A stretch of 64,000 nucleotides of DNA from Eledone cirrhosa (taxonomy: Eukaryota). The stretch lies in contig OZ024742.1 of NCBI GenBank assembly GCA_964016885.1, positions 361,398,001 to 361,462,000 of the forward strand, given 5' to 3'. The translations under genes were made by a program, and so were the position numbers. Of the stretch, positions 3,001 to 64,000 are shown in pieces. Below the pieces are notes generated by a model that ran no database searches, was not told the origin of the DNA, and saw only the letters and a program-made list of their open reading frames with translations. Positions within the stretch are counted from its first letter, which is position 1. Every line of letters begins with the position of its first letter.

Positions 3001-6000
3001 TCTACAGGGAATGGCTGTCAATGGCTCTTCTCCACAGCAATACCTCTGTCATGTCTAGAGGGTATGGCTGTCATTGGCCCTTCTCCACATTGATACCTCT
3101 GTCATGTGTATAGGGAATGGCTCTCAATGGCACTTCTCCACAGCAATACCTCTGTCATGTCTACAGGGAATGGCTGTCAATGGCCCTTCTCCACAGTGAT
3201 ACCTCTGTCATGTCTATAGGGAATGGCTGTCAAATTGCCCTTCTCCACAGTGATACATCTGTCATATCTACAGGGAATGGCTGTCAATGGCCCTTCTCCA
3301 CAGCAATACCTCTGTCATGTCTGCAGGGAATGGCTGTCAATGGCCCTTCTCCACAGTGTTATCTCTGTCATGTCTACAGGGAATGGCTGTCAATGGCGCT
3401 TCTTCACAGTGATACCTCTGTCATGTCTACAGGGAATGGCTGTCAATGGCCCTTCTCCACAGCAATGCCCTTGTCATGTCTACAGGGAATGGCTGTCAAT
3501 GGCCCTTCTCCACAGTGATACCTCTGTCATGTCTACAGGGAATGGCTGTCAATGGCCCTTCTCCACATTGTTATCTCTGTCATGTCTACAGGGAATGGCT
3601 GTCAATGGCCCTTCTCCACAGCAATACCTCTGTCATGTCTACAGGGAATGGCTGTCAATGGCCCTTCTCCACAGTGATACCTCTGTCATGTCTATAAGGA
3701 ATGGCTGTCAATGGCCCTTCTCCACAGCAATACCTCTGTCATGTCTACAGGGAATGGCTGTCAATGGCCCTTCTCCACAGCAATACCTCTGTCATGTCTA
3801 CAGGGAATGGCTGTCAATGGCCCTTCTCCACAGTGATACCTCTGTCATGTCTATAGGGAATGGCTGTCAATGGCCCTTCTCCACAGCAATACCTCTGTCA
3901 TGTCTACAGGGAATGGCTGTCAATGGCCCTTCTCCACAGTGATACCTCTGTCATATCTACAGGGAATATCTGTCAATGGCCCATCACTATAGTGATACCT
4001 CTGTCATGTCTATAGGGAATGGCTGTCAATGGCCCTTCTCCACAGTGATATCTCTGTCATGTCTACATGGAATGGCTGTCAATGGCCCTTCTCCACAGCA
4101 ATATCTCTGTCATGTCTACAGGGAATGGCTGTCAATGGCCCTTCTCCACAGTGATATCTCTGTCATGTCTACAGGGAATGGCTGTCAATGGCCCTTCTCT
4201 ACAGCCATACCTCTGTCATGTCTACAGGGAGTGGCTCTAAATGGCCCTTCTCCACAGTGATACCTCTGTCATGTCTATAGGGAATGGCTCTCAATGGCCC
4301 TTCTCCACAGCAATACCTCTGTCATGTCTACAGGGAATGGCTGTCAATGGCCCTTCTCCACAGTGTTATCTCTGTCATGTCTACAGGGAATGGCTGTCAA
4401 TGTCCCTTCACCACAGTGTTTCCTCTGTCATGTCTACAGGGAATGGCTGTCAATGGCCCTTCTCTACAGTGAAATCTCTGTAACGTCTACAGGGAATGGC
4501 TGTCAATGGCCCTTCTCCACAGTGATACCTCTGTCATGTATACAGGGAATGGCTGTCAATGGCCCATCTCTATAGTGATACCTCTGTCATGTCTACAAGG
4601 AATGGCTGGCAATAGCCCGTCTCCACAGTGATACCTCTGTCATTTCTACAGGGTATGGCTGTCATTGGCCCTTCTCCACAGTGATACCTCTGTCATGTCT
4701 ATAGGGAATGGCTCTCAATGGCCCTTCTCCACAGCAATACCTCTGTCATGTCTACAGGGAATGGCTGTCAATGGCCCTTCTCCACAGTGATACCTCTGTC
4801 ATGTCTATAGGGAATGGCTGTCAAATTGCCCTTCTCCACAGTGATACATCTGTCATATCTACAGGGAATGGCTGTCAATGGCCCTTCTCCACAGCAATAC
4901 CTCTGTCATGTCTGCAGGGAATGGCTGTCAATGGCCCTTCTCCACAGTGTTATCTCTGTCATGTCTACAGGGAATGGCTGTCAATGGCGCTTCTTCACAG
5001 TGATACCTCTGTCATGTCTACAGGGAATGGCTGTCAATGGCCCTTCTCCACAGCAATGCCCTTGTCATGTCTACAGGGAATGGCTGTCAATGGCCCTTCT
5101 CCACAGTGATACCTCTGTCATGTCTACAGGGAATGGCTGTCAATGGCCCTTCTCCACATTGTTATCTCTGTCATGTCTACAGGGAATGGCTGTCAATGGC
5201 CCTTCTCCACAGCAATACCTCTGTCATGTCTACAGGGAATGGCTGTCAATGGCCCTTCTCCACAGTGATACCTCTGTCATGTCTATAAGGAATGGCTGTC
5301 AATGGCCCTTCTCCACAGCAATACCTCTGTCATGTCTACAGGGAATGGCTGTCAATGGCCCTTCTCCACAGCAATACCTCTGTCATGTCTACAGGGAATG
5401 GCTGTCAATGGCCCTTCTCCACAGTGATACCTCTGTCATGTCTATAGGGAATGGCTGTCAATGGCCCTTCTCCACAGCAATACCTCTGTCATGTCTACAG
5501 GGAATGGCTGTCAATGGCCCTTCTCCACAGTGATACCTCTGTCATATCTACAGGGAATATCTGTCAATGGCCCATCACTATAGTGATACCTCTGTCATGT
5601 CTATAGGGAATGGCTGTCAATGGCCCTTCTCCACAGTGATATCTCTGTCATGTCTACATGGAATGGCTGTCAATGGCCCTTCTCCACAGCAATATCTCTG
5701 TCATGTCTACAGGGAATGGCTGTCAATGGCCCTTCTCCACAGTGATATCTCTGTCATGTCTACAGGGAATGGCTGTCAATGGCCCTTCTCTACAGCCATA
5801 CCTCTGTCATGTCTACAGGGAGTGGCTCTAAATGGCCCTTCTCCACAGTGATACCTCTGTCATGTCTATAGGGAATGGCTCTCAATGGCCCTTCTCCACA
5901 GCAATACCTCTGTCATGTCTACAGGGAATGGCTGTCAATGGCCCTTCTCCACAGTGTTATCTCTGTCATGTCTACAGGGAATGGCTGTCAATGTCCCTTC

Positions 6001-36900: not shown

Positions 36901-37020
36901 ATTAAAATAACAGATCAAAGTTTAAGCAAAGAATTGTTGCTTTCACCCTTAACGGGATCTTCTGAAACTTAAGAGTAAAAGCAGCAGTTCTTTGCTTAAA
37001 CTTTAATCTGTTATTTTAAT
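36901..37020. repeat. Short inverted repeat / hairpin (52-bp arms, 16-bp loop)
   Basis: attaaaataacagatcaaagtttaagcaaagaattgttgctttcacccttaa is the reverse complement of 36969-37020 with ~5 mismatches. Flanked by TA-rich sequence. Confidence 0.9.
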
Positions 37021-37794
37021 ATATATATATACACTGGCATTAAATAAAACCTGAGGATATGTAAAAGTTTCAGCATTATTTGTATGATTAAATGATAAAT
37101 ATGCATATACTCCACAGAAAGCAACTTAAGTTGCAATCTATAGAAAAATAAGGAATTCATAGTATCTTTTCTAGACATCTCTAATAGAGAAATTAATTAA
37201 AACATTACATTTATACTTGTGTAAACATTTGCTATATGAATAAAATACACCTTTTCTTAATATATCAAAACTAAAACAAAAACTAAACTAAAAAGTAAGC
37301 TAAAAATATACATCAGTGAGAAAGCTTGTTTTAAATTAAGATTTTAAAACTTAAATTGAACACAAAATATCAAACAAAACACAAATAGCAACGTAATAAA
37401 TTTCATTTACAATATTCAACCCTTTTGAAATGTTACCTCAAACCTTTGCTATTTTGATGTTTCATGAGGAATAGGTATTGGAAAGCAGACAAATATCAGA
37501 CAAACAAAATGGCCACAATGATGTAAATGTCTTTTTATAAAGTTCTGTTGAAACACACCCAGCGCTAAAAGCCAACCAAGGAATGGAATTCCTTGTTTGT
37601 ATTTAATGATTGCTTGCCTCATTCAGAATAATTACCATCTACATCTCTCCTTCTAGCCACTTAACCCAATGGAAATATATATGAACAAACCTTTCAAAGA
37701 TTCCTATTGCCATGTTGGGCAAGGGTGGGTTGTAATTACATCAGTTGCAATCTGTATATATGTATTTTCGAGTGAATAACAATAATATAATGAC

Positions 37795-37921
37795 TGTTTC
37801 TACTTTTGGCACAAGGCCAGCAATAACCCAGTGTATTACTGGTACTTTATGTTATCGACCCCGTAAGGATGAAAGGCAAAGTTAACCTCGGCGGGATTTG
37901 AACTCAGACCATAAAGGGCCG
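37795..37921 (-). mobile_element. 5'-truncated tRNA-derived SINE, inverted partner of the copy at 37973-38165
   Basis: Reverse complement of 38035-38158 (gagttcaaatcccgccgagg...gctggccttgtgccaaaagtagaaaca). Confidence 0.85.
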
Positions 37922-37972
37922 TATGGTCTGAGTTCAAATAATATTATATTATAATATTATTAATAATATTAT

Positions 37973-38165
37973 AGGGCGGTGGATTTGCAGTATCGGTAGA
38001 GGGTCAGACACCATGCTTTCCAGCAAAGTTACGTCCCTTTACGATCTGAGTTCAAATCCCGCCGAGGTTGACTTTGCCTTTCATCTTTACGGGGTCGATA
38101 AAATAAAGTACCAGTAATGCACTGGGTAATTGCTGGCCTTGTGCCAAAAGTAGAAACAATTATTA
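37973..38165 (+). mobile_element. tRNA-derived SINE (second family), near full length
   Basis: Head ggcggtggatttgcagtatcggtagag, B-box gagttcaaatccc, tail gtagaaac(att)n. Homologues at 47262, 47451 and 48245. Confidence 0.85.
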
Positions 38166-38389
38166 ATAATATTATAATATTATTAATATTCGGTTTGTTT
38201 ACAAGCAAACAGCTTTATTAACACCGTGTGTGTTTTCTAAATGACCAATCTTATCCTTTTGTTTCAGCAGTAGCTGAGTAGAAACAGTTGACAATTGTTT
38301 CAGAGCTTTTGCTCTTTATCGAGATTGTGTATCCTCATCACTGCGAACTGCCAGTTCAGTTGATCGTGTCTTGCTCATAAAGAACTGAT

Positions 38390-38562
38390 TTTGGCTTGGT
38401 TTCTACGGCTGGATGACTTTAACAATGCCACCCATATTTTCGTTGTGACACCTACGTGACGAGTTTATAGTGTGGACTTGGTGCTGTTGTTGTATTGCCA
38501 ACATGGCCAATCTCCAGTGTGGATTGGGTGCTTTTTATTCTGACACCTATACGACCACTTTA
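38390..38562 (-). mobile_element. SINE/RTE 3'-tail fragments containing one dispersed copy of the 48-bp satellite monomer
   Basis: Minus strand reads gtaaagtggtcgtataggtgtcagaataaaaagcacccaatccacactg and catccagccgtagaaacc. Confidence 0.7.
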
Positions 38563-38575
38563 CATATACATATGC

Positions 38576-38610
<35 letters not shown>

Positions 38611-39087
38611 AATTACACTCAAGATTATCCAAGAACTTTGTGCGTAACATCTGAAAAATATTATGCAGGAGTGAGACAGGTTTACAGTGTTAATCACGGG
38701 CTTATGGCCATTCAATACAACATTGTAAAGATGGCTCTTTTCTGTAAAGGTGTGGCAGTTATCGTGTGTGGGACTGTGTGTGTTATTGTTGTTAAAACAT
38801 ATTGGTACATATTATGCACATTGCAAACATTATCTATATATAAAGCAGAGTGTGGTAATGTATTTTATGACAAAAAGTAACAGTAAAATGTTATACAGGT
38901 TTAACCTCGTATTTGTTCACTGTTATGATCAACTACCAGGTGAAAATTATATTACAAGTAACTGCCATTAGGAAGGGCATCCAGCTATAGAAACCATGTA
39001 AGAATTAGTTCTGTATAAGCAAGACATGCTGGTCACCTTCCTCAAATTGTTTCAAATGGGATAACCTATTTAACACATTAAACTATG

Positions 39088-39123
<36 letters not shown>

Positions 39124-40039
39124 TAGGAAAGCAATGTTCAATTGGTCAGTGTGCAGAAATAAAATAATATTTATTTAGGTTCATAAATAGAACAAAATTG
39201 CTGCCTAGCATTTCAAGACCAAATATTGACCAATCTCCAAAATGTAAGAGGGATCAAATTTGTGACCTATCTATCTTCTTCCATTTATGAACATAAATAA
39301 ATAGAGTATATATATATATATATATAGAAAGATTTGAATGGATACAGTTTAGTTGAAAGGAATTTATTGACACGTGTTTCTATAACAGTTACATAACCTA
39401 AAACAGCTGCTATCTACAAACTTTTAGTTATGCAGACATTAAATATTTCAATGTTATTATTTACTGTCATTTCATCAGAGTAATATTACTGAGGACCTAT
39501 TTAGTTTTTATAGAGAATATTAGGAGGGAGGGGTGAAGTTGTCAGAAGAATAGTTCAAGGAGTGGTTTTTCAATAGCAGTGAGAATTCTTGGTGGCAGTG
39601 AGTAATTAGATTCCCATCTGTTGTTTTGACATTTTTTATAGAATATATTATTGGTTATTTTTCTAAATCTATAGAAGGATTAGACATAGTAAAGATATGC
39701 GTGGTTGGTTTTGTGTTTGCACTTAATTAACATTCAGACTTAAATTTTTCTTTCTAGTGTACGTATCCTTTCACCCACGCATTCACACACAAATATATTT
39801 GCACACCTCTACAAAATACATATACTCACAATTCACATATTCATACTTACATATATATACACATGCATACACATATATATACACACATGTATTCATGTAT
39901 ATACATACGCGCTCATGTGTATACATTTTCATACTCAACTTATCTTTATATACACACGTATAGACACACACATATATACATACATACTCTAGTCCATGTG
40001 TACACACATACACATACATACACATCCATATACACATAT

Positions 40040-40072
<33 letters not shown>

Positions 40073-40527
40073 AGCACTTTAATACATGAATACACTTACA
40101 TCTAACTATACACATCAAACATATATATATATTTACTTATTTATATACATTTTCACATATATATACATACTTATGGACGTTTTTAGACACATTCATTATC
40201 GCATATTTGCACCTATTCTCATCAGCATATCTTTCCATTATTAGTGTGGTAATTTAAGGTTATTAATATATGTTGAGAAGAGATTGTTTTTATATTTTTC
40301 TAACTAGATTAAGGTTTATATAGTTGGGGGATGTCCCTCTTTTATGTAATATTCGGCTTGTAGTGGGAAAAAAGGGTTTTAGTTCTGTGACGGCAGAATA
40401 ATGTTCGTTCAATTCTGTTATTCACCAGTTTCTTCTTGTGTGTGATTATGTAATAAATCTCAAGATTACACAATTTGCAGAAATTTTGGCTCCTGGAAAA
40501 GCTTTGGGTTTTAGCTAATTTCCAGAA

Positions 40528-40758
40528 AAAGCTTGGACGCTCAGGGATAGCGATCAAAAGTTTACCCTAAAATGGGAGAAATTAGCTAAAACCCAAAGCT
40601 TTTCCAGGAGCCAAAATTTCTGCAAATTGTGTAATCTTGAGATTTATTACATAATCACACACAAGAAGAAACTGGTGAATAACAGAATTGAACGAACATT
40701 ATTCTGCCGTCACAGAACTAAAACCCTTTTTTCCCACTACAAGCCGAATATTACATAA
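40528..40758 (+). pseudogene. C-terminal fragment of a Penelope-like GIY-YIG endonuclease (CxLC...N.R.E...CRH type); a shorter mirror copy lies at 40342-40520 on the minus strand
   Basis: Translates as KAWTLRDSDQKFTLKWEKLAKTQSFSRSQNFCKLCNLEIYYIITHKKKLVNNRIERTLFCRHRTKTLFSHYKPNIT*. This fits the recalled PLE pattern W.LK.....IKW.I.......CNLCL.EK..I.....LN.R.E....CRH..K.LL. It is absent from the ORF track on + because it has no start codon. Confidence 0.8.
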
Positions 40759-40870
40759 AAGAGGGACATCCCCCAACTATATAAACCTTAATCTAGTTAG
40801 AAAAATATAAAAACAATCTCTTCTCAACATATATTAATAACCTTAAATGACCACACTAATAATGGAAAGA

Positions 40871-40928
40871 TATGCTGATGAGAATAGGTGCAAATATGCG
40901 ATAATGAATGTGTCTAAAAACGTCCATA
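40871..40928 (+). ncRNA. Candidate degenerate minimal type I hammerhead (mirror copy 40172-40229, minus strand)
   Basis: tatg-CTGATGA-gaa-taggtgca...tgtgtcta-AAAAC-GTC-cata. Stem I (tatg/cata) is intact, but the G12 position is A and the stem II register is imperfect. Confidence 0.4.
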
Positions 40929-41025
40929 AGTATCTATATATATGTGAAAATGTATATAAATAAGTAAATATATATATATGTTTGATGTGTATAGTTAGAT
41001 GTAAGTGTATTCATGTATTAAAGTG

Positions 41026-41082
<57 letters not shown>

Positions 41083-41632
41083 ATATGTGTATATGGATGT
41101 GTATGTATGTGTGTACACATGGACTAGAGTATGTATGTATATATGTGTGTGTCTATACGTGTGTATATAAAGATAAGTTGAGTATGAAAATGTATACACA
41201 TGAGTGCGTATGTATGTACATGAATACATGTGTGTATATATATGTGTATGCATGTGTATATATATGTAAGTATGAATATGTGAATTGTGAGTATATGTAT
41301 TTTGTAGAGGTGTGCAAATATATTTGTGTGTGAATGCGTGGGTGAAAGGATACGTACACTTGAAAGAAAAATTTAAGTCTGAATGTTAATTAAGTGCAAA
41401 CACAAAACCAACCACGCATATCTTTACTATCTCTAATCCTTCTATAGATTTAGAAAAATAACCAATAATATATTCTATAAAAAATGTCAAAACAACAGAT
41501 GGGAATCTAATTACTCACTGCCACCAAGAATTCTCACTGCTATCGAAAAACCACTCCTTCAACTATTCTTCTGACAACTTCACCCCTCCCTCCTAATATT
41601 CTCTATAAAAACTAAATAGGTCCTCAGTAATA

Positions 41633-41752
41633 TTACTCTGATGAAATGACAGTAAATAATAACATTGAAATATTGAATGTCTGCATAACTAAAAGTTTGT
41701 AGATAGCAGCTGTTTTAGGTTATGTAACTGTTATAGAAACACGTGTCAATAA
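41633..41752 (+). ncRNA. Candidate type I hammerhead ribozyme with extended stem II, slightly degenerate (mirror copy 39364-39483, minus strand)
   Basis: ttact-CTGATGA(41638)-a-atgacagt...~80 nt...actgttat-a-GAAAC-ACGT-GTC(41747)-aataa. Stem II has 8 bp, loop III is palindromic, and stem I (ttact/aataa) has one mismatch. Confidence 0.55.
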
Positions 41753-41899
41753 ATTCCTTTCAACTAAACTGTATCCATTCAAATCTTTCTATTTTTCTCC
41801 GGATTACTTTTGGAACTACAACTGGAACCGTCGAGCAAACTCTACGTGAGCTGATAATCTACTGTGTGTAATATTTATATTACAACACAACGGAAAATA

Positions 41900-41950
<51 letters not shown>

Positions 41951-41964
41951 TATACATAAGTATA

Positions 41965-42283
41965 AGGAGGCATATGGCTTAGCAATCGAAAGGTTGTGAG
42001 TTCAATTCTCAGACCGGGTGATGTGTTGTTTCCTTGGGCAAGACACTTTATTTCACATTGCTCCAGTTTACTCAGCTGTAGAAATGAGATATTAGGGACT
42101 GGGGTCCATATCATTCCACTGCAAAGTGGTCGTGGAGGTGCCACGGCAAAAAAAAGCACCCAGCACTCACTGTAAATGAGGTTGGTGTTAGGAAGGGCAT
42201 CCAGCTGTAGAAATCAAGCCAGCATCAGTTCCCGTCCCACCCTTGTAAGTAGAGAAAAGCAGACGTAAAATGAAATGAATGAA
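41965..42283 (+). mobile_element. tRNA-derived CORE-type SINE with RTE-like tail
   Basis: Head tggcttagc...gagttcaattc, CORE-like gttgtttccttgggcaagacacttt, tail aaaaagcacccagcactcactgtaaa...gttaggaagggcatccagctgtagaaa...gacgtaaaatgaaatgaatgaa. Confidence 0.85.
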
Positions 42284-43531
42284 ACCCCTATACTTAGCTT
42301 TTGTTGACTTGGAGAAAGCCTTTGACAGAGTCCCACACTCCATTATCTGGTGGGCTCTTAGAAAACGAGGTGATGATGAATGGCTTGTGAGAGCTATACA
42401 AGCCATGTATAAAGAAACAGTCAGCAAGGTTAGAATTAACAACGAATATAGTGAAGAGTTTAGCGTAAAAGTTGGTGTTCATCAGGGCTCCGTTCTTAGC
42501 CCCCCCTACTATTTATTATTGCCCTTCAGTCTATAACAGAGGAGTTCAAGACCGGCTGCCCATGGGAACTCCTATATGCAGATGATCTAACGTTCATAGC
42601 TGAATCAATGGCTGAACTAGAGAAGAAATTCCAAACATGGAAGCATGGCCTAGAATCAAAAGGCCTTAAAATTAACCTGTCCAAGACTAAAGTTCTTGTT
42701 TGTAGGAAGGAAAATAGGGCACTGGTCCCATCTGAGAAATGGCCATGCTCAGTGTGTAGGAAAGGAGTAAGCTGAAACTCCATTTTATGTCCCAAATGCA
42801 AAGTATGGGTGCATAAAAGATGTAGTGTGATCACAGGTAAGTTAACTAAGAATATAGATTTTATATGTGGCCGGTGGTCTGGTGCAATAAGTAGCAGCAA
42901 ATGCCCAGGGAATACTAGCTCATTCCATTGCACATATGGTTCTATAGAAATCTTGGACACCTTCCGTTACCTGGGTGACAAAATCAGCAGTGGTGGAGGG
43001 TGCTCTGAAAGTACAGTAGCTAGAGTCAGAACAGGGTGGAAAGAGTTCATAGAGCTTATACCACTATTGGCCGCTAAAAGGTTCTCTCTAAAAATGAAAA
43101 GCAGGCTGTATGAACCCTGCATACGAACACCAATGTTACATGGCAGTGAGACCTGGGCATTGTATGAAGAGGAGACGTGCAGACTGGAGAGAAACGAAGC
43201 TTGCATGCTCCGCTGGATGTGTAATAGTAATATACATGAATGGCAAAGCATAAACGAACTAAGGGAGAAATTAGGAATAAGAGGGATCAGATGTTGTTTA
43301 CTCGAGAGAAGACTACGTTGGTACGGTCACGTGATGCTCATGAAAGACGACAGCTGTATAAAAAAGTGCATGGCGATAAAAATAGACGGTAGCCACGGAG
43401 TAGGCAGACCCAGAAAAACCTGGGACGACTTGATAAATTCCAACCTCACACACTTACACCTCTCCAAGAAAATGTCACTGGACCGAGATCTTTGGTGCTT
43501 CACAGTAATACAGAAGACCAGCCTTGCCTAA
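42279..43531 (+). pseudogene. Disrupted reverse transcriptase ORF of the RTE element
   Basis: +1 frameshift in the C7 run at 42500-42506, in-frame TGA at 42773-42775, and no endonuclease or N-terminal RT. Confidence 0.9.
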
Positions 43532-44032
43532 GTACAAAGCAAATCCTACAGTCAGTAGGCACCTCTAACAAAATACACCCCCCCCTCCTCCTTAAATGTG
43601 AAGTTATGTTGGTACCATAACATCCAGTCCGAAACAAATGAGGTCGTGTAGGTGTCACAACAAAAAAAACACACAGTCCATGCTGTAATGTGGCCGTGTA
43701 GGTAACACGCTAAAAACCTCCCAGTCCACACTGTAAACGTGGTTGGTGTTGGGAAGGGCACCCAGCCGTAGAAAACCCGCCAGACGTGTAGGCGTCATGA
43801 CAAATAACACAGTCCATGCTGTAATGTGGCCATGTAGGTAATACGGTAATAACCTCCCAGTCCACACTGTAAACGTGGTTGGTGTTACGAAGGGCATCCA
43901 GCCGTAGAAAACCGGCCAGACAGTCCTATACGAGCAGGACAACAAATCTTGCCTCAAGTGGGAAAACTCCCATCCAAACCCATGCAAGCGTGGAAGATGG
44001 ACGTTAAACGATGATGATGATGATGATGTTGA
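42279..44032 (+). mobile_element. 5'-truncated RTE-clade non-LTR retrotransposon (RT remnant plus 3' UTR with (GAT)n tail)
   Basis: Motifs AFVDLEKAFDRVP, GVHQGSVLSP, ELLYADD (YADD 42575-42586), FRYLG, LHGSETW, RRLRWYGHV and GRPRKTW; stop at 43531. The 3' UTR ends ggacgttaaac(gat)n. Confidence 0.95.
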
Positions 44033-44150: not shown

Positions 44151-44390
44151 TTACTCGAGAAAAGACTATGTTGGTACGGTCATGTGATGCGCATGAAAGA
44201 CGGTAAAAACCTCCCTGTCCACACTGTAAACGTGGTTGGTGTTAGGAAGGGCATCCAGCTGTAGAAATCCCGCCAGACAGTCCTATACGAGCAAGACAAC
44301 CAATCTTGCCTCAAGTGGGAAAATTCCCATCCAAATCCATGCAAGCGTGGAAGATGGACGTTAAACGATGATGATGATGATGATGATGAT
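44151..44390 (+). mobile_element. Short internally deleted copy of the same RTE family
   Basis: 44151-44202 matches ORF sequence 43298-43349 and is fused directly to 3'-UTR sequence matching ~43846-44030, with a (GAT)n tail. Confidence 0.9.
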
Positions 44391-47261: not shown

Positions 47262-47650
47262 AGGGTAGTGGATTGGCAGAATCGGTAGAGCGTCAGACAA
47301 AATACTTTACAGTATAGAGTTGTCGCCTTACGTTTTAAGTTCAAATCCTTATGGGGTTGAGAAAATAAAGTACCAGTAACGCAGTGGGGTGGATTTCTTC
47401 TACTTCTCCCCAAATTGTTGGCCTTGTGCTTAAATGAAAACCATTATTAAAGGGTGGTGGATTGGCAGTATCGGTAGAGGGTTGGACGCCATGCTTTGAT
47501 GCACAGAGTTATGGTCCTTGCCATTCTGAGTTCAAATCCCACCGAGGTTAACTTTGCCAGTCATCCTTACGGGTTGATAAAATAAAGTAACAGTAATGCA
47601 CTGGGTATTTGCTGGCCTTGTGCCAAATGTAGAAACAATTATTATTATTG
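47262..47650 (+). mobile_element. Two tandem tRNA-derived SINEs (47262-47448 and 47451-47650)
   Basis: Both begin gggt(a/g)gtggattggcag..tcggtagag, have gttcaaatcc B-boxes and end gccttgtg...(att)n. Same family as 37973. Confidence 0.85.
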
Positions 47651-49429: not shown

Positions 49430-52400
49430 TGTAAAGTGGTTATGTAGTTATCACAACAAAAAGCACCCAGTACACAGTGTAAAGTGATTATGTAGGTATC
49501 ACAACAAAAAGCATCCAGTACACACTGTAAAGTGGTCGTGTAAGTGTCACAACAAAAGGCACCCAATACAGATATAAAGTGGTCGGTAAGTGTTACAACA
49601 AAAGGCACCCAATACACACTGTAAAGTGGTCATGTAAGTGTTATGTGGTCATGTAGGTGTTACAATAAATGGCACCCAATACACGCTGTAAAGTGGTCGT
49701 GTAAGTGTTACAACAAAAGGCACCCAATACAAACTGAAAAGTGGTCATGCAGGTGTTACAACAAAAGGCACCCAATACACGCTGTAAAGTGGTCGTGTAA
49801 GTGTTACAACAAAAGGCACACAATACACACTGTAAAGTGGTCATGTAGGTGTTACAACAAAAGGCACCCAATACATGCTGTAAAGTGGTCGTGTAAGTGT
49901 TACAACAAAAGGCACACAATACACACTGTAAAGTGGTCATGTAAGTGTTAAGTGGTCATGTAGGTGTTACAACAAAAGGCACCCAATACACGCTGTAAAG
50001 TGATTATGTAGGTGTTACAACAAAAGGCACACAATACACACTGTAAAGTGATTATGTAGGTATCACAGTAAAAAGCACCCAGTACACACTGTAAAGTGAT
50101 TATGTCGGTATCACAGCAAAAAGCACCCAGTACACACTGTAAAGTGTTTGTGTAGGTATCACAGCAAAAAGCACCCAGTACACACTGTAAAGTGATTATG
50201 TAGGTATCACAGCAAAAAGCACCCAGTACACACTGTAAAGTGATTATGTCGGTATCACAGCAAAAAGCACCCAGTACACACTGTAAAGTGTTTGTGTAGG
50301 TATCACAGCAAAAAGCACCCAGTACACACTGTAAAGTGATTATGTCGGAATCACAGCAAAAAGCACCCAGTACACACTGTAAAGTGTTTGTGTAGGTATC
50401 ACAGTAAAAAGCACCCAGTACACACTGTAAAGTGATTATGTCGGTATCACAGTAAAAAGCACCCAGTACACACTGTAAAGTGTTTGTGTAGGTATCACAG
50501 CAAAAAGCACCCAGTACACACTGTAAAGTGATTATTTCGGTATCACAGTAAAAAGCACCCAGTACACACTGTAAAGTGTTTGTGTAGGTATCACAGTAAA
50601 AAGCACCCAGTACACACTGTAAAGTGATTATGTCGGTATCACAGCAAAAAGCACCCAGTACACACTGTAAAGTGTTTGTGTAGGTATCACAGCAAAAAGC
50701 ACCCAGTACACACTGTAAAGTGATTATGTAGGTATCACAGCAAAAAGCACCCAGTACACACTGTAAAGTGATTATGTCGGTATCACAGCAAAAAGCACCC
50801 AGTACACACTGTAAAGTGTTTGTGTAGGTATCACAGCAAAAAGCACCCAGTACACACTGTAAAGTGATTATGTCGGAATCACAGCAAAAAGCACCCAGTA
50901 CACACTGTAAAGTGTTTGTGTAGGTATCACAGTAAAAAGCACCCAGTACACACTGTAAAGTGATTATGTCGGTATCACAGTAAAAAGCACCCAGTACACA
51001 CTGTAAAGTGTTTGTGTAGGTATCACAGCAAAAAGCACCCAGTACACACTGTAAAGTGGTCGTGTAGGTATCACAGCAAAAAGCACCCAGTACACACTGT
51101 AAAGTCGTTGTGTCGGTATCACAGCAAAAAGCACCCAGTACACACTGTAAAGTGTATGTGTAGGTATCACAGCAAAAAGCACCCAATACGCACTGTAAAG
51201 TGTTTGTGTTGGTATCACAGCAAAAAGCACCCAGTACACACTGCAAAGTGGTTGTGTAGGTATCACAGCAAAAAGCACCCAGTACACACTGTAAAGTCGT
51301 TGTGTAGGTATCACAGCAAAAAGCACCCAGTACACACTGTAAAGTAATTATGTAGGTATCACAGCAAAAAGCACCCAATACACACTGTAAAATTGTCAGG
51401 TAAGTGTAACAACAAAAGGCACCCGATACACACAGTAAAGTGGTCATGTAGTTGTTACAACAAAAGGCACCCAATACACGATGTAAAGTGGTCGTGTAAG
51501 TGTTACAACAAGAGGCACCCAATACACTCAGTAAAGTGGTCATGTAGGTGTTACAACAAAAGGCACCCAATACACGCTGTAAAGTGGTCGTGTAAGTGTT
51601 ACAACAAAAGGCACCCAATACACACAGTAAAGTGGTCATGTAGGTGTTACAACAAAAAGCACCCAATACACGCTGTAAAGTGGTCGTGTAAGTGTTATAA
51701 CGAAACGCACCCAATACACACTGTAAATGGGTCATGTAGGTGTTACAACAAAAGGCACCCAATACAGACTGTAAAGTGGTCGTCTAGGTGTTACAACAAA
51801 AGGCACCCAATACACGCTGTAAAGTGGTCGTGTAAGTGTTATAACGAAACGCACCCAATACACACTGTAAATGGGTCATGTAGGTGTTACAACAAAAGGC
51901 ACCCAATACAGACTGTAAAGTGGTCGTCTAGGTGTTACAACAAAAGTCACCCAATACGCACTGAAGTGGTCATGTAACTGTTACAACAAAAGGCACACAA
52001 TACACACTGTAAAGTGGTCATGTAGGTGTTACAACAAAAGGCACCCAATACAAACTGTAAAGAGGTCATGTAAGTGTTATAACGAATTGATTATGTAAGT
52101 ATCACAACAAAAATCATCCAGTACACACTGTAAAGTGGTCGTGTAAGTGTCACAACAAAAGGCACCCAGTACACACTGTAAAGTGGTCGTGTAAGTGTCA
52201 CAACAAAAGGCATCCAATACACACTGTAAAGTGGCCGTGTAGGTGTTACAACAAAAGGCATCCAATACACGCTGTAAAGTGGTCGTGTAGGTGTTACAAC
52301 AAAAGGCATCCAATACACGCTGTGAAGTGGTAATGTAGGTGTTACAACAAAAGGCATCCAATACACACTGTAAAGTGGTAATGTAAGTGTCATAATGAAA

Positions 52401-55400
52401 TACACCCAATACACACTGTAAAGTGGTCATGTAGGTGTTACAACAAAAGGCACCCAATACACACTGTAAAGTGGTCATGTAAGTGTCACAACAAAAGGCA
52501 CCCAATACACACTGTAAAGTGGTCATATAGGTGTTACAACAAAAGGCACCCAATACACACTGTAAAGTGGTCGTGTAAGTGTTATAACGAAATGCACCCA
52601 ATACACACTGTAAATTGGTCATGTAAGTGTCACAACAAAAGGCACCCAGTACACACTGTAAAGTGATTATGTAGGTATCACACCAAAAAGCATCCCTTAC
52701 ACACTTTAAATTGATTATGTAAGTATCAAAAGGCACCCAATACACACTGTAAAGTGGTCGTGTAAGTGTCACAACAAAAGGCAGCCAATACACACTGTAA
52801 AATGGTCATGTAAGTCTAACTAGAAAAGGCACCCAATACAAGCTGTAAAGTGGTCGTGTCATTGACACAACAAAAGCAACCACTACACACTGTAAAGTGA
52901 ATGTGTAGGTGTTACAACAAAAGGCACCCAATACACACTGTAAAGTGGTCGGGTAGGTGTTACAACAAAAGGCACCCAATACATGCTGTTAAGTGGTCGT
53001 GTAAGTGTTACAACAAAAGGCCCCCAATACACACTGTAAGGTGGTCATGTAGGTGTTACAACAAAAGGCACCCAATACACACTGTGAAGAGGTCGTGTAA
53101 GTGTTACAACAAAAGGCACCCAATACACACTGTAAAGTTGTTGTGTAGGTATCACAGCAAAAAGCACCCAATACACACAGTAAAGTGCTCATGTAGATGT
53201 TACAACAAAAGGCACCCAATACACACTGTGACGAGGTCGTGTAAGTGTTACAACAAAAGGCACCCAATACACACTGTAAAGTGGTTGTGTAGGTATCACA
53301 GCAACAAGCATACAGTACACACTGTAATGTGGTTGTGTAGGTATCACAGCAAAAAGCACCCAGTACACACTGTAATGTGGTTGTGTAGGTATCACAGCAA
53401 AAAGCACGCAGCACTCTCTGTAAAGTGACTGTGTAGGTATCACAGCAAAAAGGACCCAGTACTCACTTTAAAGTGGTTGTGTAAGTATCACAACAAAAAG
53501 CACCCCTTACACACTGTAACGTGATTATGTAGCTATCACATCAAAAAGTACCCAGTACACACTGTAAAGTGATTATGTAGGTATCACACCAAAAAGCATC
53601 CAGTACACACTGTAAAGTGGTTGTTGAAGTGTCACAACAAAAGGTACCCAATACACACTGTAAAGTGGTCGTGTCAATGACACCACAAAAGACACGCATT
53701 ACACACTGTAAAGTGTTTATGCCGGTGTTACAACACAAGGCACCCAATACACATTGTCAAGTGGTCGTGTAGGTGTTACAACACAAGGCACCCAATACAC
53801 GCTGTAAAGTGGTCATGTAGGTGTTACAACACAAGGCACCCAATACACAATGTTAAATGGTCGTGTAGGTCTTACAACAAAAGGCACCCAATACACGCTG
53901 TAAAGTGGTCACGTAACTGTTACAACAAAAGGCACCCAATACACACTGTAAAGTGGTCGTGTAGGTGTTACAACAAAAGGCACTCAATACACAATGTAAA
54001 GTGGTCATGTAGGTGTTACAACAAAGGGCACCCAATACACACTGTAACCTTGTCATGTAAGTGTTACAACAAAAGGCACCCAATACTCACTGTAAAGTGG
54101 TCATGTAGGTGTTACCACAAAATGCACCCAATACACACTGTAAAGTGTTCATGTAAATGTTACAACAAAAGGCACCCAGTACACACTGTAAAGTGGTTGT
54201 GTAGGTATCACAGCAAAAAGCACACAGTACACACTGTAACGTGATTATGTAGGTATCTCAGCAAAAAGCACCCAGTACACACTGTAAAGTGATTATGTAG
54301 GTACCCCAGCAAAAAGGACCTAGTACACACTGTCTAATGATTATGTAGGTATCACAGCAAAAAGCAGCCAGTACACACTGTAAAGTGATTATGTAGGTAT
54401 CACACCAAAATGCACCCAATACAATCTGTAATATGGTCGTGTCAGTGACACCACAAAAGACACCCAATACACACTGTAAAGTGGTCATGTAGGTGTTACA
54501 ACACAAGGTACCCAATACACACTGTTAAGTGGTCATGTAACTGTTACAACAAAAGTCACCCAAAACACACTGTAAAGTGGTCCTGTAGGTGTTACAACAA
54601 AAGGCACCCAATACACACTGTAAAGTGGTCATGTAAGTGTTACAACAAAAGGCACCCAATACACACTGTAAAGTGGTCATGTAAGTGTTACAACAAAAGG
54701 CACCAAATACTCACTATAAAGTGGTCGTGTAAGTGTTACAACAAAAGGCACCCAATACATACTGTAAAGTGGTCATGTAAGTGTTACAACAAAAGGCACC
54801 CAATACAAACTGTAAAGTGGTCATGTAAGTGTTACAACAAAAGGCACCCAATACAAACTGTAAAGTGGTCATGTAACTGTTCCAACAAAAGGCACCCAAT
54901 ACAAACTGTAAAGTGGTCATGTAAGTGTTACAACAAAAGGCACCCAATACAAACTGTAAAGTGGTCATGTAAGTGTTACAACAAAAGGCACCCAATACGC
55001 ACCGAAGTGGTCATGTAACTGTTACAACAAAAGGCACCCAATACACACTGTAAAGTGGTCATGTAGGTGTTACAACAAAAGGCACCCAATACAAACTGTA
55101 AAGTGGTCACGTAACTGTTACGACAAAAGGCACCCAATACAAACTGTAAAGTGGTCATGTAAGTGTTACAACAAAAGGCACCCAATACACACTGTAAAGT
55201 GGTCATGTAACTGTTACGACAAAAGGCACCCAATACAAACTGTAAAGTGGTCATGTAAGTGTTACAACAAAAGGCACCCAATACACACTGTAAAGTGGTC
55301 ATGTAGGTGTAACAACAAAAGGCACCCAATACTCACTGTAAAGTGATCATGTAAGTGTTACAACAAAAGGCACCCAATACAAACTGTAAAGTGGTCATGT

Positions 55401-58400
55401 AACTGTTACAACAAAAGGCACCCAATACACACTGTAAAGTGGTCATGTAAATGTTACGACAAAAGGCACCCAATACAAACTGTAAAGTGGTCATGTAAGT
55501 GTTACAACAAAAGGCACCCAATACACACTGTAAAGTGGTCATGTAGGTGTTACAACAAAAGGCACCCAATACTCACTGTAAAGTGATCATGTAAGTGTTA
55601 CAACAAAAGGCACCCAATACAAACTGTAAAGTGGTCATGTAACTGTTACAACAAAAGGCACCCAATACACACTGTAAAGTGGTCATGTAAGTGTTACAAC
55701 AAAAGGCACCCAATACTCACTGTAAAGTGGTCATGTAGGTGTTACAACAAAAGGCACCCAATACACACTGTAAAGTGGTCATGTAGGTGTTACAACAAAA
55801 GGCACCCAATACTCACTGTAAAGTGCTCATGTAGGTGTTACAACAAAAGGCACCTAATACACACTGTAAAGTAGTCATGTAGGTGTTACAACAAAAGGCA
55901 CCCAATACACACTGTAAAGTGGTTATGTAGGTGTTACAACAAAAGGCACCCAATACGCACTGAAGTGGTCATGTAACTGTTACAACAAAAGGCACCCAAT
56001 ACACACTGTAAAGTGGTCATGTAGGTGTTACAACAAAAGGCACCCAATACAAACTGTAAAGTGGTCATGTAAGGGTTACAACAAAAGGCACCCAATACAC
56101 ACTGTAAAGTGGTCATGTAAGTGTTACAACAAAAGGCACCCAATACGCACTGAAGTGGTCATGTAACTGTTACAACAAAAGGCACCCAATACTCACTGTA
56201 AAGTGGTCATGTAACTGTTACAACAAAAGGCACCCAATACGCACTGAAGTGGTCATGTAAGTGTTACAACAAAAGCCACCCAATACACACTGTAAAGTGG
56301 TCATGTAAGTGTTACAACAAAAGACACCCAATACACACTGTAAAGTAGTCATGTAAGTGTTACAACAAAAGGCACCCAATACACACTGTAAAGTGGTCAT
56401 ATAAGTGTTACAACAAAAGGCACAGAATACACACTGTAAAGTGGTCATGTAGGCGTTACAACAAAAGGCACCCAATACACATTGTAAAGTGGTCATGTAA
56501 GTGTTACAACAAAAGGCACCCAATACACACTGTAAAGTGGTCGTGTAAGTGTTACAACAAAAGGCACCCAATACACACTGTAAAGTGGTCATATAACTGT
56601 TACAACAAAAGGCACCTAATACAAACTGTAAAGAGGTCATGTAACTGTTACAACAAAAGGCTCCCAATACACACTGTAAAGTGGTCATGTATGTGTTACA
56701 ACAAAAGGCACCCAATACAAACTGTAAAGTGGACATGTAGGTGTTACAACAAAAGGCACCCAATACAATCTGTAAAAGGGTCGTGTCAGTGACACCACAA
56801 AAGACACCCATTACACACTGTAAACTGGTCATGTAGGTGTTACAACACAAGGTACCCAATACACACTGTTAAGTGGTCATATAGGTGTTACAACAAAAGG
56901 CACCCAATACGCACTGAAGTGGTCATGTAGGTGTTAAAACAAAAGGCACCCAATACAAACTGTAAAGTGGTCATGTAAGTGTTACAACAAAAGGCACCCA
57001 ATACTCACTGTAAAGTGATCATGTATGTGTTACAACAAAAGGCACCCTATAGACACTGTAAAGTGGTCATGTAGGTGTTACAACAAAAGGCACCCAATAC
57101 ACACTGTAAAGTGGTCATGTAACTGTTACAACAAAAGGCACCCAATACACACTGTAAAGTGGTCATGTAACTGTTACAACAAAAGGCACCCAATACACAC
57201 TGTAAAATGGTCATGTAGGTGTCACAACAAAAGGCACCCAATACACACTGTAAAGTGGTCATGTAGATGTTACAACAAAAGACACCCAATACACACTGTA
57301 AAGTGGTCATGTAGGTTTTATTACAAAAGGCACCCAATACACACTGTAAAGTGGTCATGTAAGTGTTACAACAAAAGTCACCCAATACACACTGTAAAGT
57401 GGTCATGTAGGTGTTACAAAAAAAGGCACCCAATACGCACTGAAGTGGTCATGTAACTGTTACAACAAAAGGCACTCAATACACACTGTAAAGTGGTCAT
57501 GTAACTGTTACAACAAAAGTCATCCAATACACACTGTAAAGTGGTCATGTAGGTGTTACAACAAAAGGCACCCAATACACACTGTAAAGTGGTCATGTAA
57601 GTGTTACAACAAAAGGCACCCAATACACACTGTAAAGTGGTCTTGTAGGTATTACAACAAAAGGCACCCAATACACACTGTAAAGTGGTCATGTAAGTGT
57701 TACAACAAAAGGCACCCAATACGCACTGTAAAGTGGTCATGTAGGTGTTACAACAAAAGGCACCCAATACGCACTGAAGTGGTCATGTAACTGTTACAAC
57801 AAAATGCACCCAATACACACTGTAAAGTGGTCATGTAGGTGTTACAACAAAAGGCACCCAATACAAACTGTAAAGTGGTCATGTAAGTGTTACAACAAAA
57901 CGCACCCAATACACACTGTAAAGTGGTCATGTAAGTGTTACAACAAAAGGCACCCAATACACACTGTAAAGTGGTCATGTAGGTGTTACAACAAAAGGCA
58001 CCCAATACACACTGTAAAGTGGTCATGTAAGTGTTACAACAAAAGGCACCCAATACACACTGTAAAGTGATCATGTAACTGTTACAACAAAAGGCACCCA
58101 ATACAAACTGTAAAGTGGTCATGTAGGTGTTACAACAAAAGGCACCCAATACACATTGTAAAGTCGTCATGTAGGTGTTACAACAAAAGGCACCCAATAC
58201 GCACTGAAGTGGTCATGTAACTGTTACAACAAAAGGCACCCAATACACACTGTAAAGTGGTCATGTAGGTGTTACAACAAAAGGCACCCAATACAAACTG
58301 TAAAGTGGTCATGTAAGTGTTACAACAAAACGCACCCAATACACACTGTGAAGTGGTCATGTAAGTGTTACAACAAAAGGCACCCAATACACACTGTAAA

Positions 58401-61400
58401 GTGGTCATGTAGGTGCTACAACAAAAGGCACCCAATACACACTGTAAAGTGGTCATGTAGGTGTTACAACAAAAGGCACCTAATACACACTGTAATGTGG
58501 TCATGTAGGTGTTACAACAAAAGGCACCCAATACACACTGTAAAGTGGTCATGTAACTGTTACAACAAAAGGCACCCAATACGCACTGAAGTGGTCATGT
58601 AGGTGTCACAACAAAAGGCACCCAATACACACTGTAAAATGGTCATGTAAGTGTTACAACAAAAGGCACCCAATACACACTGTAAAGTGGTCATGTAAGT
58701 GTTACAACAAAAGGCACCCAATACACACTGTAAAGTGGTCATGTAAGTGTTACAACAAAAGGCACCCAATACACACTGTAAAGTGGTCATGTAAGTGTTA
58801 CAACAAAAGGCACCCAATACACACTGTAAAGTGGTCATGTAAGTGTTACAACAAAAGGCACCCAATACACACTGTAAAGTGGTCATGTAAGTGTTACAAC
58901 AAAAGGCACCCAATACACACTGTAAAGTGGTCATGTAAGTGTTACAACAAAAGGCACCCAATACACACTGTAAAGTGGTCATGTAAGTGTTACAACAAAA
59001 GGCACCCAATACACACTGTAAAGTGGTCATGTAGGTGTTACAACAAAAGGCACCCAATACTCACTGTAAAGTGGTCTGTAGGTGCTACAACAAAAGGCAC
59101 CCAATACACACTGTAAAGTGGTCATGTAAGTGTTACAACATAAGGCACCCAATACGCACTGAAGTGGTCATGTAACTGTTACAACAAAAGGCACCCAATA
59201 CACACTGTAAAGTGGTCATGTAGGTGTTACAACACAAATCACCCTATACACACTGTAAAGTGGTCATGTAGGTGGTACAACAAAAGGCACCCAATACACA
59301 CTGTAAAGTGGTCATGTAAGTGTTACAACAAAAGACACCCAATACACACTGTAAAGTGGTCATGTAAGTGTTACAACAAAAGGTACCCAATACACACTGT
59401 AAAGTGGTCATGTAAGTGTTACAACAAAAGGCACCCAATACACACTGTAAAGTGGTCATGTAGGTGTTACAACAAAAGGCACCCAATACACATTATAAAG
59501 TGGTCATGTAAGTGTTACAACAAAAGGCACCCAATACACACTGTAAAGTGGTCGTGTAAGTGTTACAACAAAAGGCACCCAATACACACTGTAAAGTGAT
59601 CATATAACTGTTACAACAAAAGCACCCAATACAAACTGTAAAGAGGTCATGTAACTGTTACAACAAAAGGCTCCCAATACACACTGTAAAGTGGTCATGT
59701 ATGTGTTACAACAAAAGGCACCCAATACAAAATGTAAAGTGGTCATGTAGGTTTTACAACAAAAGGCACCCAATACAATCTGTAAAATGGTCGTGTCAGT
59801 GACACCACAAAAGACAACCATTACACATTGTAAAGTGGTCATGTAGGTGTTACAACACAAGGCACCCAATACACACTGTTAAGTGGTCATGTAGGTGTTA
59901 CAACAAAAGGCACCCAATACGCACTGAAGTGGTCATGTAGGTGTTACAACAAAAAACACCCAATACAAACTGTAAAGTGGTCATGTAAGTGTTACAACAA
60001 AAGGCACCCAATACTCACTGTAAAGTGATCATGTAGGTGTTACAACAAAAGGCACCCTATACACACTGTAAAGTGGTCATGTAGGTGTTACAACAAAAGG
60101 CACCCAATACACACTGTAAAGTGGTCATGTAACTGTTACAACAAAAGGCACCCAATACACATTGTAAAGGGGTCATGTAAGTGTTACAACAAAAGGCTCC
60201 CAATACACACTGTAAAGTGGTCGTGTAAGTGTTACAACAAAAGGCACCCAATACACACTGTAAAGTGGTCATATAACTGTTACAACAAAAGGCACCTAAT
60301 ACAAACTGTAAAGAGGTCATGTAACTGTTACAACAAAAGGCTCCCAATACACACTGTAAAGTGGTCATGTATGTGTTACAACAAAAGCCACCCAATACAA
60401 ACTGTAAAGTGGACATGTAGGTGTTACAACAAAAGTCACCCAATACAATCTGTAAAATGGTCGTGTCAGTGACACCACAAAAGACACCCTTTACACACTG
60501 TAAAGTGGTCATGTAGGTGTTAGAACAAAAGGCACCCAATACACACTGTAAAGTGGTCATGTAGGTGTTACAACAAAAGGCACCCAATACACCCTGTAAA
60601 GTGGTCATGTAAGTGTTACAACAAAAGGCACCCAATACTCACTCTAAAGTGGTCATGTAGGTGCTACAACAAAAGGCACCCAATACACACTGTAAAGTGG
60701 TCATGTAAGTGTTACAACAAAAGGCACCCAATACACACTGTAAAGTGGTCATGTAACTGTTACAACAAAAGGCACCCAATATAAACTGTAAAGTGGTCAT
60801 GTAGGTGTTACAACAAAAGGCACCCAATACACACTGTAAAGTGGTCATGTAAGTGTTACAACAAAAGGCACCCAATACACACTGTAAAGTGGTCATGTAA
60901 GTGTTACAACAAAAGGCACCCAATACACACTGTAAAGTGGTCATGTAGGTGTTACAACAAAAGGCACCCAATACTCACTGTAAAGTGGTCTGTAGGTGCT
61001 ACAACAAAAGGCACCCAATACACACTGTAAAGTGGTCATGTAAGTGTTACAACATAAGGCACCCAATACGCACTGAAGTGGTCATGTAACTGTTACAACA
61101 AAAGGCACCCAATACACACTGTAAAGTGGTCATGTAAGTGTTACAACAAAAGGCACCCAATACACACTGTAAAGTGGTCATGTAAGTGTTACAACAAAAG
61201 GCACCCAATACACACTGTAAAGTGGTCATGTAAGTGTTACAACAAAAGGCACCCAATACACACTGTAAAGTGGTCATGTAGGTGTTACAACAAAAGGCAC
61301 CCAATACTCACTGTAAAGTGGTCTGTAGGTGCTACAACAAAAGGCACCCAATACACACTGTAAAGTGGTCATGTAAGTGTTACAACATAAGGCACCCAAT

Positions 61401-64000
61401 ACGCACTGAAGTGGTCATGTAACTGTTACAACAAAAGGCACCCAATACACACTGTAAAGTGGTCATGTAGGTGTTACAACACAAATCACCCTATACACAC
61501 TGTAAAGTGGTCATGTAGGTGGTACAACAAAAGGCACCCAATACACACTGTAAAGTGGTCATGTAAGTGTTACAACAAAAGACACCCAATACACACTGTA
61601 AAGTGGTCATGTAAGTGTTACAACAAAAGGCACCCAATACACACTGTAAAGTGGTCATGTAAGTGTTACAACAAAAGGCACCCAATACACACTGTAAAGT
61701 GGTCATGTAGGTGTTACAACAAAAGGCACCCAATACACATTGTAAAGTGGTCATGTAAGTGTTACAACAAAAGGCACCCAATACACACTGTAAAGTGGTC
61801 GTGTAAGTGTTACAACAAAAGGCACCCAATACACACTGTAAAGTGGTCATATAACTGTTACAACAAAAGGCACCCAATACAAACTGTAAAGAGGTCATGT
61901 AACTGTTACAACAAAAGGCTCCCAATACACACTGTAAAGTGGTCATGTATGTGTTACAACAAAAGGCACCCAATACAAAATGTAAAGTGGTCATGTAGGT
62001 TTTACAACAAAAGGCACCCAATACAATCTGTAAAATGGTCGTGTCAGTGACACCACAAAAGACAACCATTACACATTGTAAAGTGGTCATGTAGGTGTTA
62101 CAACACAAGGCACCCAATACACACTGTTAAGTGGTCATGTAGGTGTTACAACAAAAGGCACCCAATACGCACTGTTAAGTGGTCATGTAAGTGTTACAAC
62201 AAAAGGCACCCAATACTCACTGTAAAGTGATCATGTAGGTGTTACAACAAAAGGCACCCTATACACACTGTAAAGTGGTCATGTAGGTGTTACAACAAAA
62301 GGCACCCAATACACACTGTAAAGTGGTCATGTAACTGTTACAACAAAAGGCACCCAATACACATTGTAAAGTGGTCATGTAAGTGTTACAACAAAAGGCT
62401 CCCAATACACACTGTAAAGTGGTCGTGTAAGTGTTACAACAAAAGGCACCCAATACACACTGTAAAGTGGTCATATAACTGTTACAACAAAAGGCACCTA
62501 ATACAAACTGTAAAGAGGTCATGTAACTGTTACAACAAAAGGCTCCCAATACACACTGTAAAGTGGTCATGTATGTGTTACAACAAAAGCCACCCAATAC
62601 AAACTGTAAAGTGGACATGTAGGTGTTACAACAAATGTCACCCAATACAATCTGTAAAATGGTCGTGTCAGTGACACCACAAAAGACACCCTTTACACAC
62701 TGTAAAGTGGTCATGTAGGTGTTAGAACAAAAGGCACCCAATACACACTGTAAAGTGGTCATGTAGGTGTTACAACAAAAGGCACCCAATACACACTGTA
62801 AAGTGGTCATGTAAGTGTTACAACAAAAGGCACCCAATACTCACTCTAAAGTGGTCATGTAGGTGCTACAACAAAAGGCACCCAATACACACTGTAAAGT
62901 GGTCATGTAAGTGTTACAACAAAAGGCACCCAATACACACTGTAAAGTGGTCATGTAACTGTTACAACAAAAGGCACCCAATATAAACTGTAAAGTGGTC
63001 ATGTAGGTGTTACAACAAAAGGCACCCAATACAAACTGTAAAATGGTCATGTAAGTGTTACAACAAAAGGCACCCAATACACACTGTAAAGTGGTCATGT
63101 AAGTGTTACAACAAAAGGCACCCAATACACACTGTAAAGTGGTCATATAGGTGCTACAACAAAAGGCACCCAATACACACAGTAAAGTGGTCATGTAACT
63201 GTTACAATAAAAGGCACCCAATACACACTGTAAAGTGGTCATGTAGGTGTTACAACAAAAGGCACCCAATACTCACTGTAAAGTGGTATGTAGGTGCTAC
63301 AACAAAAGGCACCCAATACACACTGTAAAGTGGTCATGTAAGTGTTACAACATAAGGCACCCAATACACACTGTAAAGTGGTCATGTAGGTGCTACAACA
63401 AAAGGCACCCAATACACACTGTAAAGTGGTCATGTAACTGTTACAACAAAAGGCACCCAATACACACTGTAAAGTGGTCATGTAGGTGTTACAACAAAAG
63501 GCACCCAATACACACTGTAAAGTGGTCATGTAATTGTTACAACAAAAGGCACCCAATACACACTGTAAAGTGGTCATGTAAGTGTTACAACAAAAGGCAC
63601 CCAATACACACTGTAAAGTGCTCATGTAAGTGTTACAACAAAAGGCACCCAATACACGCTGTAAAGTGGTCATGTAGGTGTTACAACAAAAGGCACCCAA
63701 TACTCACTGTAAAGTGGTCATGTAGGTGCTACAACAAAAGGCACCCAATACACACTGTAAAGTGGTCATGTAACTGTTACAACAAAAGGCACCCAATACA
63801 CACTGTAAAGTGGTCATGTAGGTGTTACAACAAAAGGCACCCAATACACACTGTAAAGTGGTCATGTAACTGTTACAACAAAAGGCACCCAATACACACT
63901 GTAAAGTGGTCATGTAAGTGTTACAACAAAAGGCACCCAATACACACTGTAAAGTGGTCATGTAGGTGTTACAACAAAAGGCACCCAATACACACTGTAA
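49430..64000. repeat. 48-bp tandem satellite array (~300 monomers), runs off the right window edge
   Basis: Consensus gtaaagtggtcatgta(g/a)gtgttacaacaaaaggcacccaatacacact. A variant domain at ~50040-51390 has alternating monomers, and there is a ~2.2-kb duplication in the distal part. Confidence 0.99.

Follow-up and report, generated by a model that had tools for sequence, protein, structure and literature searches.

Penelope-like elements (PLEs) of the Hydra clade are described as having a C-terminal GIY-YIG endonuclease (EN), RWK and DKT motifs, a CxCX5C linker, and CxxC and CxH without the CCHH motif; they also carry a hammerhead and favour (TA)n targets (PMC8557442). In the same account Naiads have an N-terminal EN and are described as devoid of canonical hammerheads. 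Its supplement includes an octopus Hydra family (Hydra-1_Obim), and a 966-nt 5'-truncated inverted copy is given for Penelope-13_HM, also of the Hydra clade. Inverted PLE copies with a tail at one end have already been published (PMC8557442; PMC3846280), and the origin of inverted and tandem PLE structures is termed undefined in the first of these sources. For PAc, a Poseidon element of Anolis, the published text describes cutting and extension of both strands, two internal start sites that bound a tail, a predicted dimer, and uncut RNA as the substrate (PMC11167929).

The 2.6 kb palindrome examined here lies in the window, the whole 64,000-nucleotide stretch of Eledone cirrhosa DNA that was analysed, and is made of two 5'-truncated copies of a Hydra-clade PLE, head to head in a (TA)n tract. 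Its arms (39324-40522, minus strand, and 40578-41792, plus strand) are 99.2% identical, with 1184 matches, 9 substitutions and 2 indels of 22 nt (TA) and 6 nt, both microsatellite. (TA)n lies on either side: the left target remnant is at 39307-39325, and 41903-41958 holds site B and the right target remnant, with 41903-41907 assignable to element or target. Placed on the 3510-nt natural unit of a full-length locus (L022), the window reads minus 3510 to 2286, plus 2231 to 3510 and plus 1 to 116. The left arm is tail-less, covers unit nt 2286-3510 and ends at site A; the right copy (40523-41902, plus) covers unit nt 2231-3510 followed by the tail and ends at site B. They meet in a blunt junction (40522/40523), with the left arm nested in the right copy. 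The right copy begins with the 55-nt spacer between the arms (40523-40577, plus) and retains the last 77 codons and TAA of the open reading frame (40525-40758, plus), a C-terminal part of the EN with CxxC-E, N and CxH from which the GIY-YIG motif itself has been lost. There follow the 3' UTR or pseudo-LTR (40759-41791, plus), with an internal (TA)n-(TATG)n tract at about 41028-41270; site A (41790-41792, plus), where tail-less copies end and where reverse transcription would first start; and the tail (41793-41902, plus), which is the 5' leader of the element (unit nt 2-111) with a predicted AC-rich hairpin. These data uphold the layout in the initial annotation, made from the sequence without database searches: arms of about 1.2 kb and very high identity, a 55-bp spacer that is extra in-frame coding sequence of the plus copy (frame 40519-40758 is extended upstream in other copies), and an asymmetric tail of 110 nt, 3' of the right arm only, that has no mirror image and gives way to (TA)n. 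The window copy is dead and the locus itself is ordinary.

Frame 40519-40758 translates as ...EKAWTLRDSDQKFTLKWE...CKLCNLE...N...CRH...PNIT-stop. A search of the 3.0 Gb genome with a 378-base query gave 40 scored loci at 99% among at least 1354 candidates. Longer copies showed the window peptide to be the C-terminal end of a roughly 780-aa ORF with the order RT, CNCTYPDNC, IIY..YVG and then the CKLC..E..N..CRH of the window. Full-length members of the family were recovered as 10 full-span units, of which two (L022 and L057) have uninterrupted ORFs of 765-766 aa closed by TAA; the in-frame UGA codons raised in the initial annotation were found in neither. No Pfam match was obtained with the 79-aa frame or a 777-aa ORF, and a PDB sequence-profile search returned 2 matches, both irrelevant. 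A structure model of the ORF (pLDDT 88) had TERT in 8 of its top 10 fold matches. PF01541 (GIY-YIG) was matched by 9 of 69 aligned relatives (best 6.3e-5) and not by the query itself; the alignment displays the GIY-YIG columns IIY..YVG, R, H, E and N. RWK and DKT are present as RRVRWK and KADKTS, and the CxCX5C linker is CNCTYPDNC in L022, L040 and L027 and is deleted in L057. There is no CCHH in the EN, which has a single unconserved Cys between IIY and YVG and conserved CKLC and CRH. No insertion of the IFD kind was seen between motifs A and B relative to P0045, a protein that the ORF matches at E 1.8e-108 (33% over 93%) and that is near-identical to Hydra-1_Amil when compared by eye. The window peptide likewise matches the C-terminus of P0045 (E 2e-9).

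The identification as a Penelope-like element was therefore correct: a TERT-like RT and a GIY-YIG domain lie in a single ORF, with pseudo-LTRs and truncated tandem and inverted copies. The suggested Naiad-like affinity did not hold, the EN being C-terminal with DKT and no CCHH, and a hammerhead being present; Naiads, besides the features given above, have CCHH, DKA and an IFD. The family does share with Naiad a (TA)n bias, inverted and tandem insertions and a tail on one side. As judged from its motifs and from by-eye comparison with reference sequences, it is a Hydra-clade PLE, resembling Hydra-1_Amil, Hydra-1_Obim and Penelope-13_HM in every protein feature listed for the clade as well as in the 3' hammerhead and the (TA)n target. 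It is a new family within this known clade, separate from the Hydra-1_Amil-like P0045 (33%), and its best database match is 35-38%. It differs from other Hydra PLEs in unit length (3510 nt against generally <3 kb, due to a long 3' UTR), in its longer hammerhead (about 120 nt against 80-100 nt) and in being very young and abundant, with copies at a median of 0.35% from the majority allele (127 arms).

In full-length copies the 110-nt tail sequence lies between the pseudo-LTR and the ATG. Copies end either at site A (unit 3510) or at site B (unit 116), 116 nt further on; (TA)n follows all 118 of 118 such 3' ends, and at each site 3-5 nt of TA match the target. A helix pairing the two sites was predicted with probability 0.7 in a 137-nt segment and ≤0.11 in four longer ones, and is treated as a lead only. 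We note that (TA)n within the UTR of L021, L030, L033 and L045 runs from tens to thousands of bases or holds further insertions.

The two ends are used according to a rule. We mapped 74 loci (the window, 38 loci found with an ORF query and 35 found with a tail query) and later 17 held-out loci, all top-scoring matches and not a random sample; L039, with a 22-nt internal inversion, was left out of the counts. Long inverted repeats occur at 24 of the 38 ORF-query loci. Head-to-head inversions were present at 47 of the 74, and 46 of these 47 (one a duplicate of another) have one A and one B end, the remaining one being cut by a SINE. Among the held-out loci 10 of 17 were inverted, of which seven were clean A+B pairs, one (L143, which may be a B/B pair) was ambiguous and two (L133 and L142) had internal ends. 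In total 53 of 57 inverted loci are A+B, one is ambiguous and none is A/A; at L107 the rule led us to expect an A end on the open arm and an A end was found. Single copies are mostly A-ended in the sets whose ends were unselected (22 A ends and no clean B end), from which it follows that primings at A and B are unequal. At L133 (6819-8400, oriented) the two arms of an inverted pair have a common starting base and are separated by 145 nt of (TA)n; here self-complementary TA tracts probably mediated a duplication at the level of DNA.

The two arms of a locus share a haplotype and probably come from one source locus; one RNA and two RNAs alike are compatible with the data, and gene conversion may have contributed. 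In 43 arm pairs (L050 was set aside as a duplicate of L049, and L033, L046 and L054 for lack of overlap) only 1 of 293 comparisons at common polymorphic sites was discordant, against a mean of 77 and a minimum of 53 in 301 shuffled pairings. Both arms had 33 rare variants in common where 0.35 were expected, and the held-out loci gave 1 discordance in 40; 99 unshared differences between arms persist. The window arms share 3 private alleles that are absent from all of the 91-122 other arms compared. A sequencing run, X6, whose unique flank is identical letter for letter, has the family allele at 39480 and 39543. The claim in the initial annotation that one integration event made the structure is probably right. 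Sharing extends to tandem units: at L110, for instance, these have 9 private variants in common and 0 different over 1692 sites, which would fit either a circular template, as proposed in PMC4209133, or homology-guided jumps.

One explanation for these data, and the one we consider probable, is a single insertion in which the two ends of the break each prime reverse transcription from one of two fixed sites separated by 116 nt. The EN would cut both strands of (TA)n, one break end would prime at site A (UAU) and the other at site B (UAUAU), and the template would be RNA of one source locus that continues past an uncleaved hammerhead as far as the leader. The two RTs would stop independently, after which the cDNA 3' ends would be joined and filled in; in the window the 55 nt between the two stops would be due to chance. 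Strand displacement would be required for one RNA to yield overlapping arms; to our knowledge PLE RTs have no RNase H. We infer two-site priming from end products alone, and count against it the L143, L133 and L142 loci, the unequal use of A and B in single copies, the top-scoring sample, and an inversion junction (unit 2067/1478) that is identical in L056 (5251-5252) and L099 (6187-6188; both oriented). These two loci differ in flanks and haplotypes and carry the tail on opposite arms, and their common junction is unexplained by independent stops. Truncation points also cluster mildly (23 close pairs against 15.9, P 0.03).

Another possibility is self-priming, as has been proposed (PMC3846280), in which one cDNA or antisense RNA folds back and is extended to give a hairpin, after which the EN trims one end at A and the other at B; a tail produced by EN resolution has also been proposed (PMC8557442). 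Such a hairpin would draw both arms from one source, accounts for the nested left arm and 55-nt loop of the window, and with trimming of each end could yield the same one-tail pairs and microhomology. Junction microhomology, a mean of 2.0 nt in 29 insert-less junctions against 0.7 simulated (0 of 20000 as high), fits both mechanisms equally well, and in 17 of 46 junctions there are 1-51 additional bases. The blunt junction and nested arm of the window mean that this locus alone does not discriminate between them. Self-priming predicts short loops, however, and across the family the point at which one arm is truncated does not correlate with that of its partner (rho -0.18, p 0.25); the median offset is 1067 nt, and offsets of <100 nt occur at 3 of 43 loci against 2.7 expected. 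Short offsets at the level of chance make the near-perfect palindrome of the window the chance end of a broad range. Also against self-priming are 5 loci where one arm is tail only and has no overlap with the other, and the likeness of A and B to the in vitro picture of RT start sites in PAc. The fold-back of the initial annotation is accordingly less favoured, and we regard it as unlikely while giving it some weight.

It is improbable that the palindrome began as a single insertion that afterwards underwent inverted duplication of its DNA, by a template switch perhaps via self-complementary (TA)n. Although this predicts the three private variants shared by the window arms and has a likely parallel in L133, the left arm ends exactly at site A, which is internal to the right copy, (TA)n is absent from the centre, and the A/B rule extends over 53 of 57 loci. 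Two independent insertions in the same (TA)n, homogenized by gene conversion, we hold to be a slimmer prospect again. The family does re-insert into (TA)n beside older copies (L021, L143), but the window junction is blunt and without (TA)n, A/A pairs are absent, and haplotypes agree almost totally while the 99 unshared differences persist. No bridging read or contig across the junction or the (TA)n ends was obtained; an assembly or fold-back read artefact is nevertheless very unlikely indeed as the source of the palindrome because the arms differ (by the substitutions and indels given above), the ends are asymmetric, and the same layout recurs at 56 other loci under a family-wide rule.

Two-site priming as favoured here is close to the PAc system. 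In both, as far as the published PAc account goes (PMC11167929), the tail lies between two fixed ends in an AT-rich target, an AC-rich hairpin stands beside the second site and the hammerhead is apparently uncut in the template; the family differs in its 116-nt tail (30-40 nt in the published work), in the position of the tail before the ATG and in the 3-5 nt TA homology at both sites. Perhaps, and this we put forward tentatively and with more doubt than confidence, PLEs integrate by obligate two-site twin priming, in which an RT-EN dimer would prime both ends of a (TA)n break at A and B on a single RNA, which could be a circle made by the hammerhead, and singles, tandems, tail-only inversions and palindromes would be two independent run lengths on one template. 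In LINE-1 twin priming both target ends prime and the cDNAs are joined by microhomology, giving an inversion. The family differs from this in that its second site is fixed and its arms usually overlap to form a palindrome; the five loci with tail-only, non-overlapping arms are like it.

The hammerhead motifs of the initial annotation were confirmed as one type I hammerhead per arm, but neither window copy passes the descriptor, which was modelled on the published Hydra table and composed after the candidate had been seen. The plus-strand hammerhead (41633-41752) has stem I at 41633-37/41748-52, CUGAUGA at 41638, an unusually long stem II domain of 92 nt, GAAA at 41736 and a palindromic stem III, with a predicted cut after 41747; its mirror copy lies at 39364-39483 (minus). 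In the family the stems are 5/8/4, matches are on the sense strand only and the predicted cut is 44 nt before site A. Any match occurred in 2 of 2000 shuffles of a 1160-nt UTR, with 0 as good, and 117 of 121 arms passed; the two window arms do not, as stem I is broken in both by a private T>C (41636/39480). The predicted active fold lies 3.8 kcal/mol above the MFE in L022 and 7.7 in the window. Rfam (E≤1, 37000-44000) gave 34 matches and no hammerhead; its miRNA matches were below the cut-off and were rejected as due to the palindrome and microsatellites. A short-stem-II hammerhead at 41638-41682 was rejected for want of a stem I match, as was CTGATGA at 40875/40225, which had no stem I or descriptor match. 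Judged by eye, a further CUGAUGA (40870-40930) is followed by ACGU-C and has a 4-bp stem I but lacks GAAA, and is perhaps a decayed hammerhead. Inserted copies do not start at the hammerhead cut: all 8 upstream pseudo-LTRs begin 5' of it, so that inserted cDNAs crossed the hammerhead, as in PAc. Hammerheads with a palindromic stem III are thought, according to PMC4209133, to be active as dimers. Two independent insertions of a 190-bp SINE-like element, with duplications of about 20 bp, occupy the same place in stem II (L099 4673-4866 and L109 3667-3854), and a third lies elsewhere in the UTR (L103, about 4650; all oriented); ARAGORN found no tRNA in the SINE-like inserts. The window has copies at 37973-38159, 37795-37923 and 47451-47638, two of which make a 136-bp inverted repeat.

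A transcript across the locus would be predicted to fold into a 1.2-kb hairpin, and as the sense strands of the arms point outward this would need read-through from outside; dsRNA or a hairpin, if formed, would be incidental. The copies bear no A>G excess as an ADAR imprint (A>G, 52 alleles over 1237 A columns; T>C, 54 over 829 T columns). A 55-nt spacer disfavours cruciform extrusion.

The locus sits in a 15-kb AT-rich island between arrays of 53-bp and 48-bp satellites. The former fills 1-34403 of the window (34 kb, 649 copies, 90% matches, with recurring longer-period variants). The latter (49645-64000) resembles the head of a dispersed repeat at 42110-42230, 43670-43800 and 44160-44290 and, on this resemblance, was possibly derived from a retroelement. 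At 42279-43531, 380 bp from the element, is a broken non-LTR (LINE) RT (RVT_1, E 3e-9) with a PHD-like Cys cluster, the one domain that Pfam found in ten ORFs of the island. Part of the stretch is present in 18 sequencing runs with 15 organism labels, and some of these matches are likely trace DNA. In run X9, which bears another organism label, unbranched contigs match the element (39337-39800) at about 96-98%, and the repeat at 38968-39011 is also present, the unique flank being absent; a close relative or horizontal transfer would account for this. Horizontal transfer involving organism C was unsupported, with fragments in run X3 and none in X22.

What is added here to the published inverted copies is, at the level of a family, the rule of one A and one B end together with arms of the same source; neither such a count nor a same-source test was found in the open papers searched, though older PLE reviews may contain them. 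As the family is young and abundant, its insertions may serve as replicates of a single reaction. It shows a form of hammerhead that Rfam misses, and it seeds the genome with long inverted repeats. The end rule and the same-source arms give a prediction for the published PAc system, and argue against self-priming.
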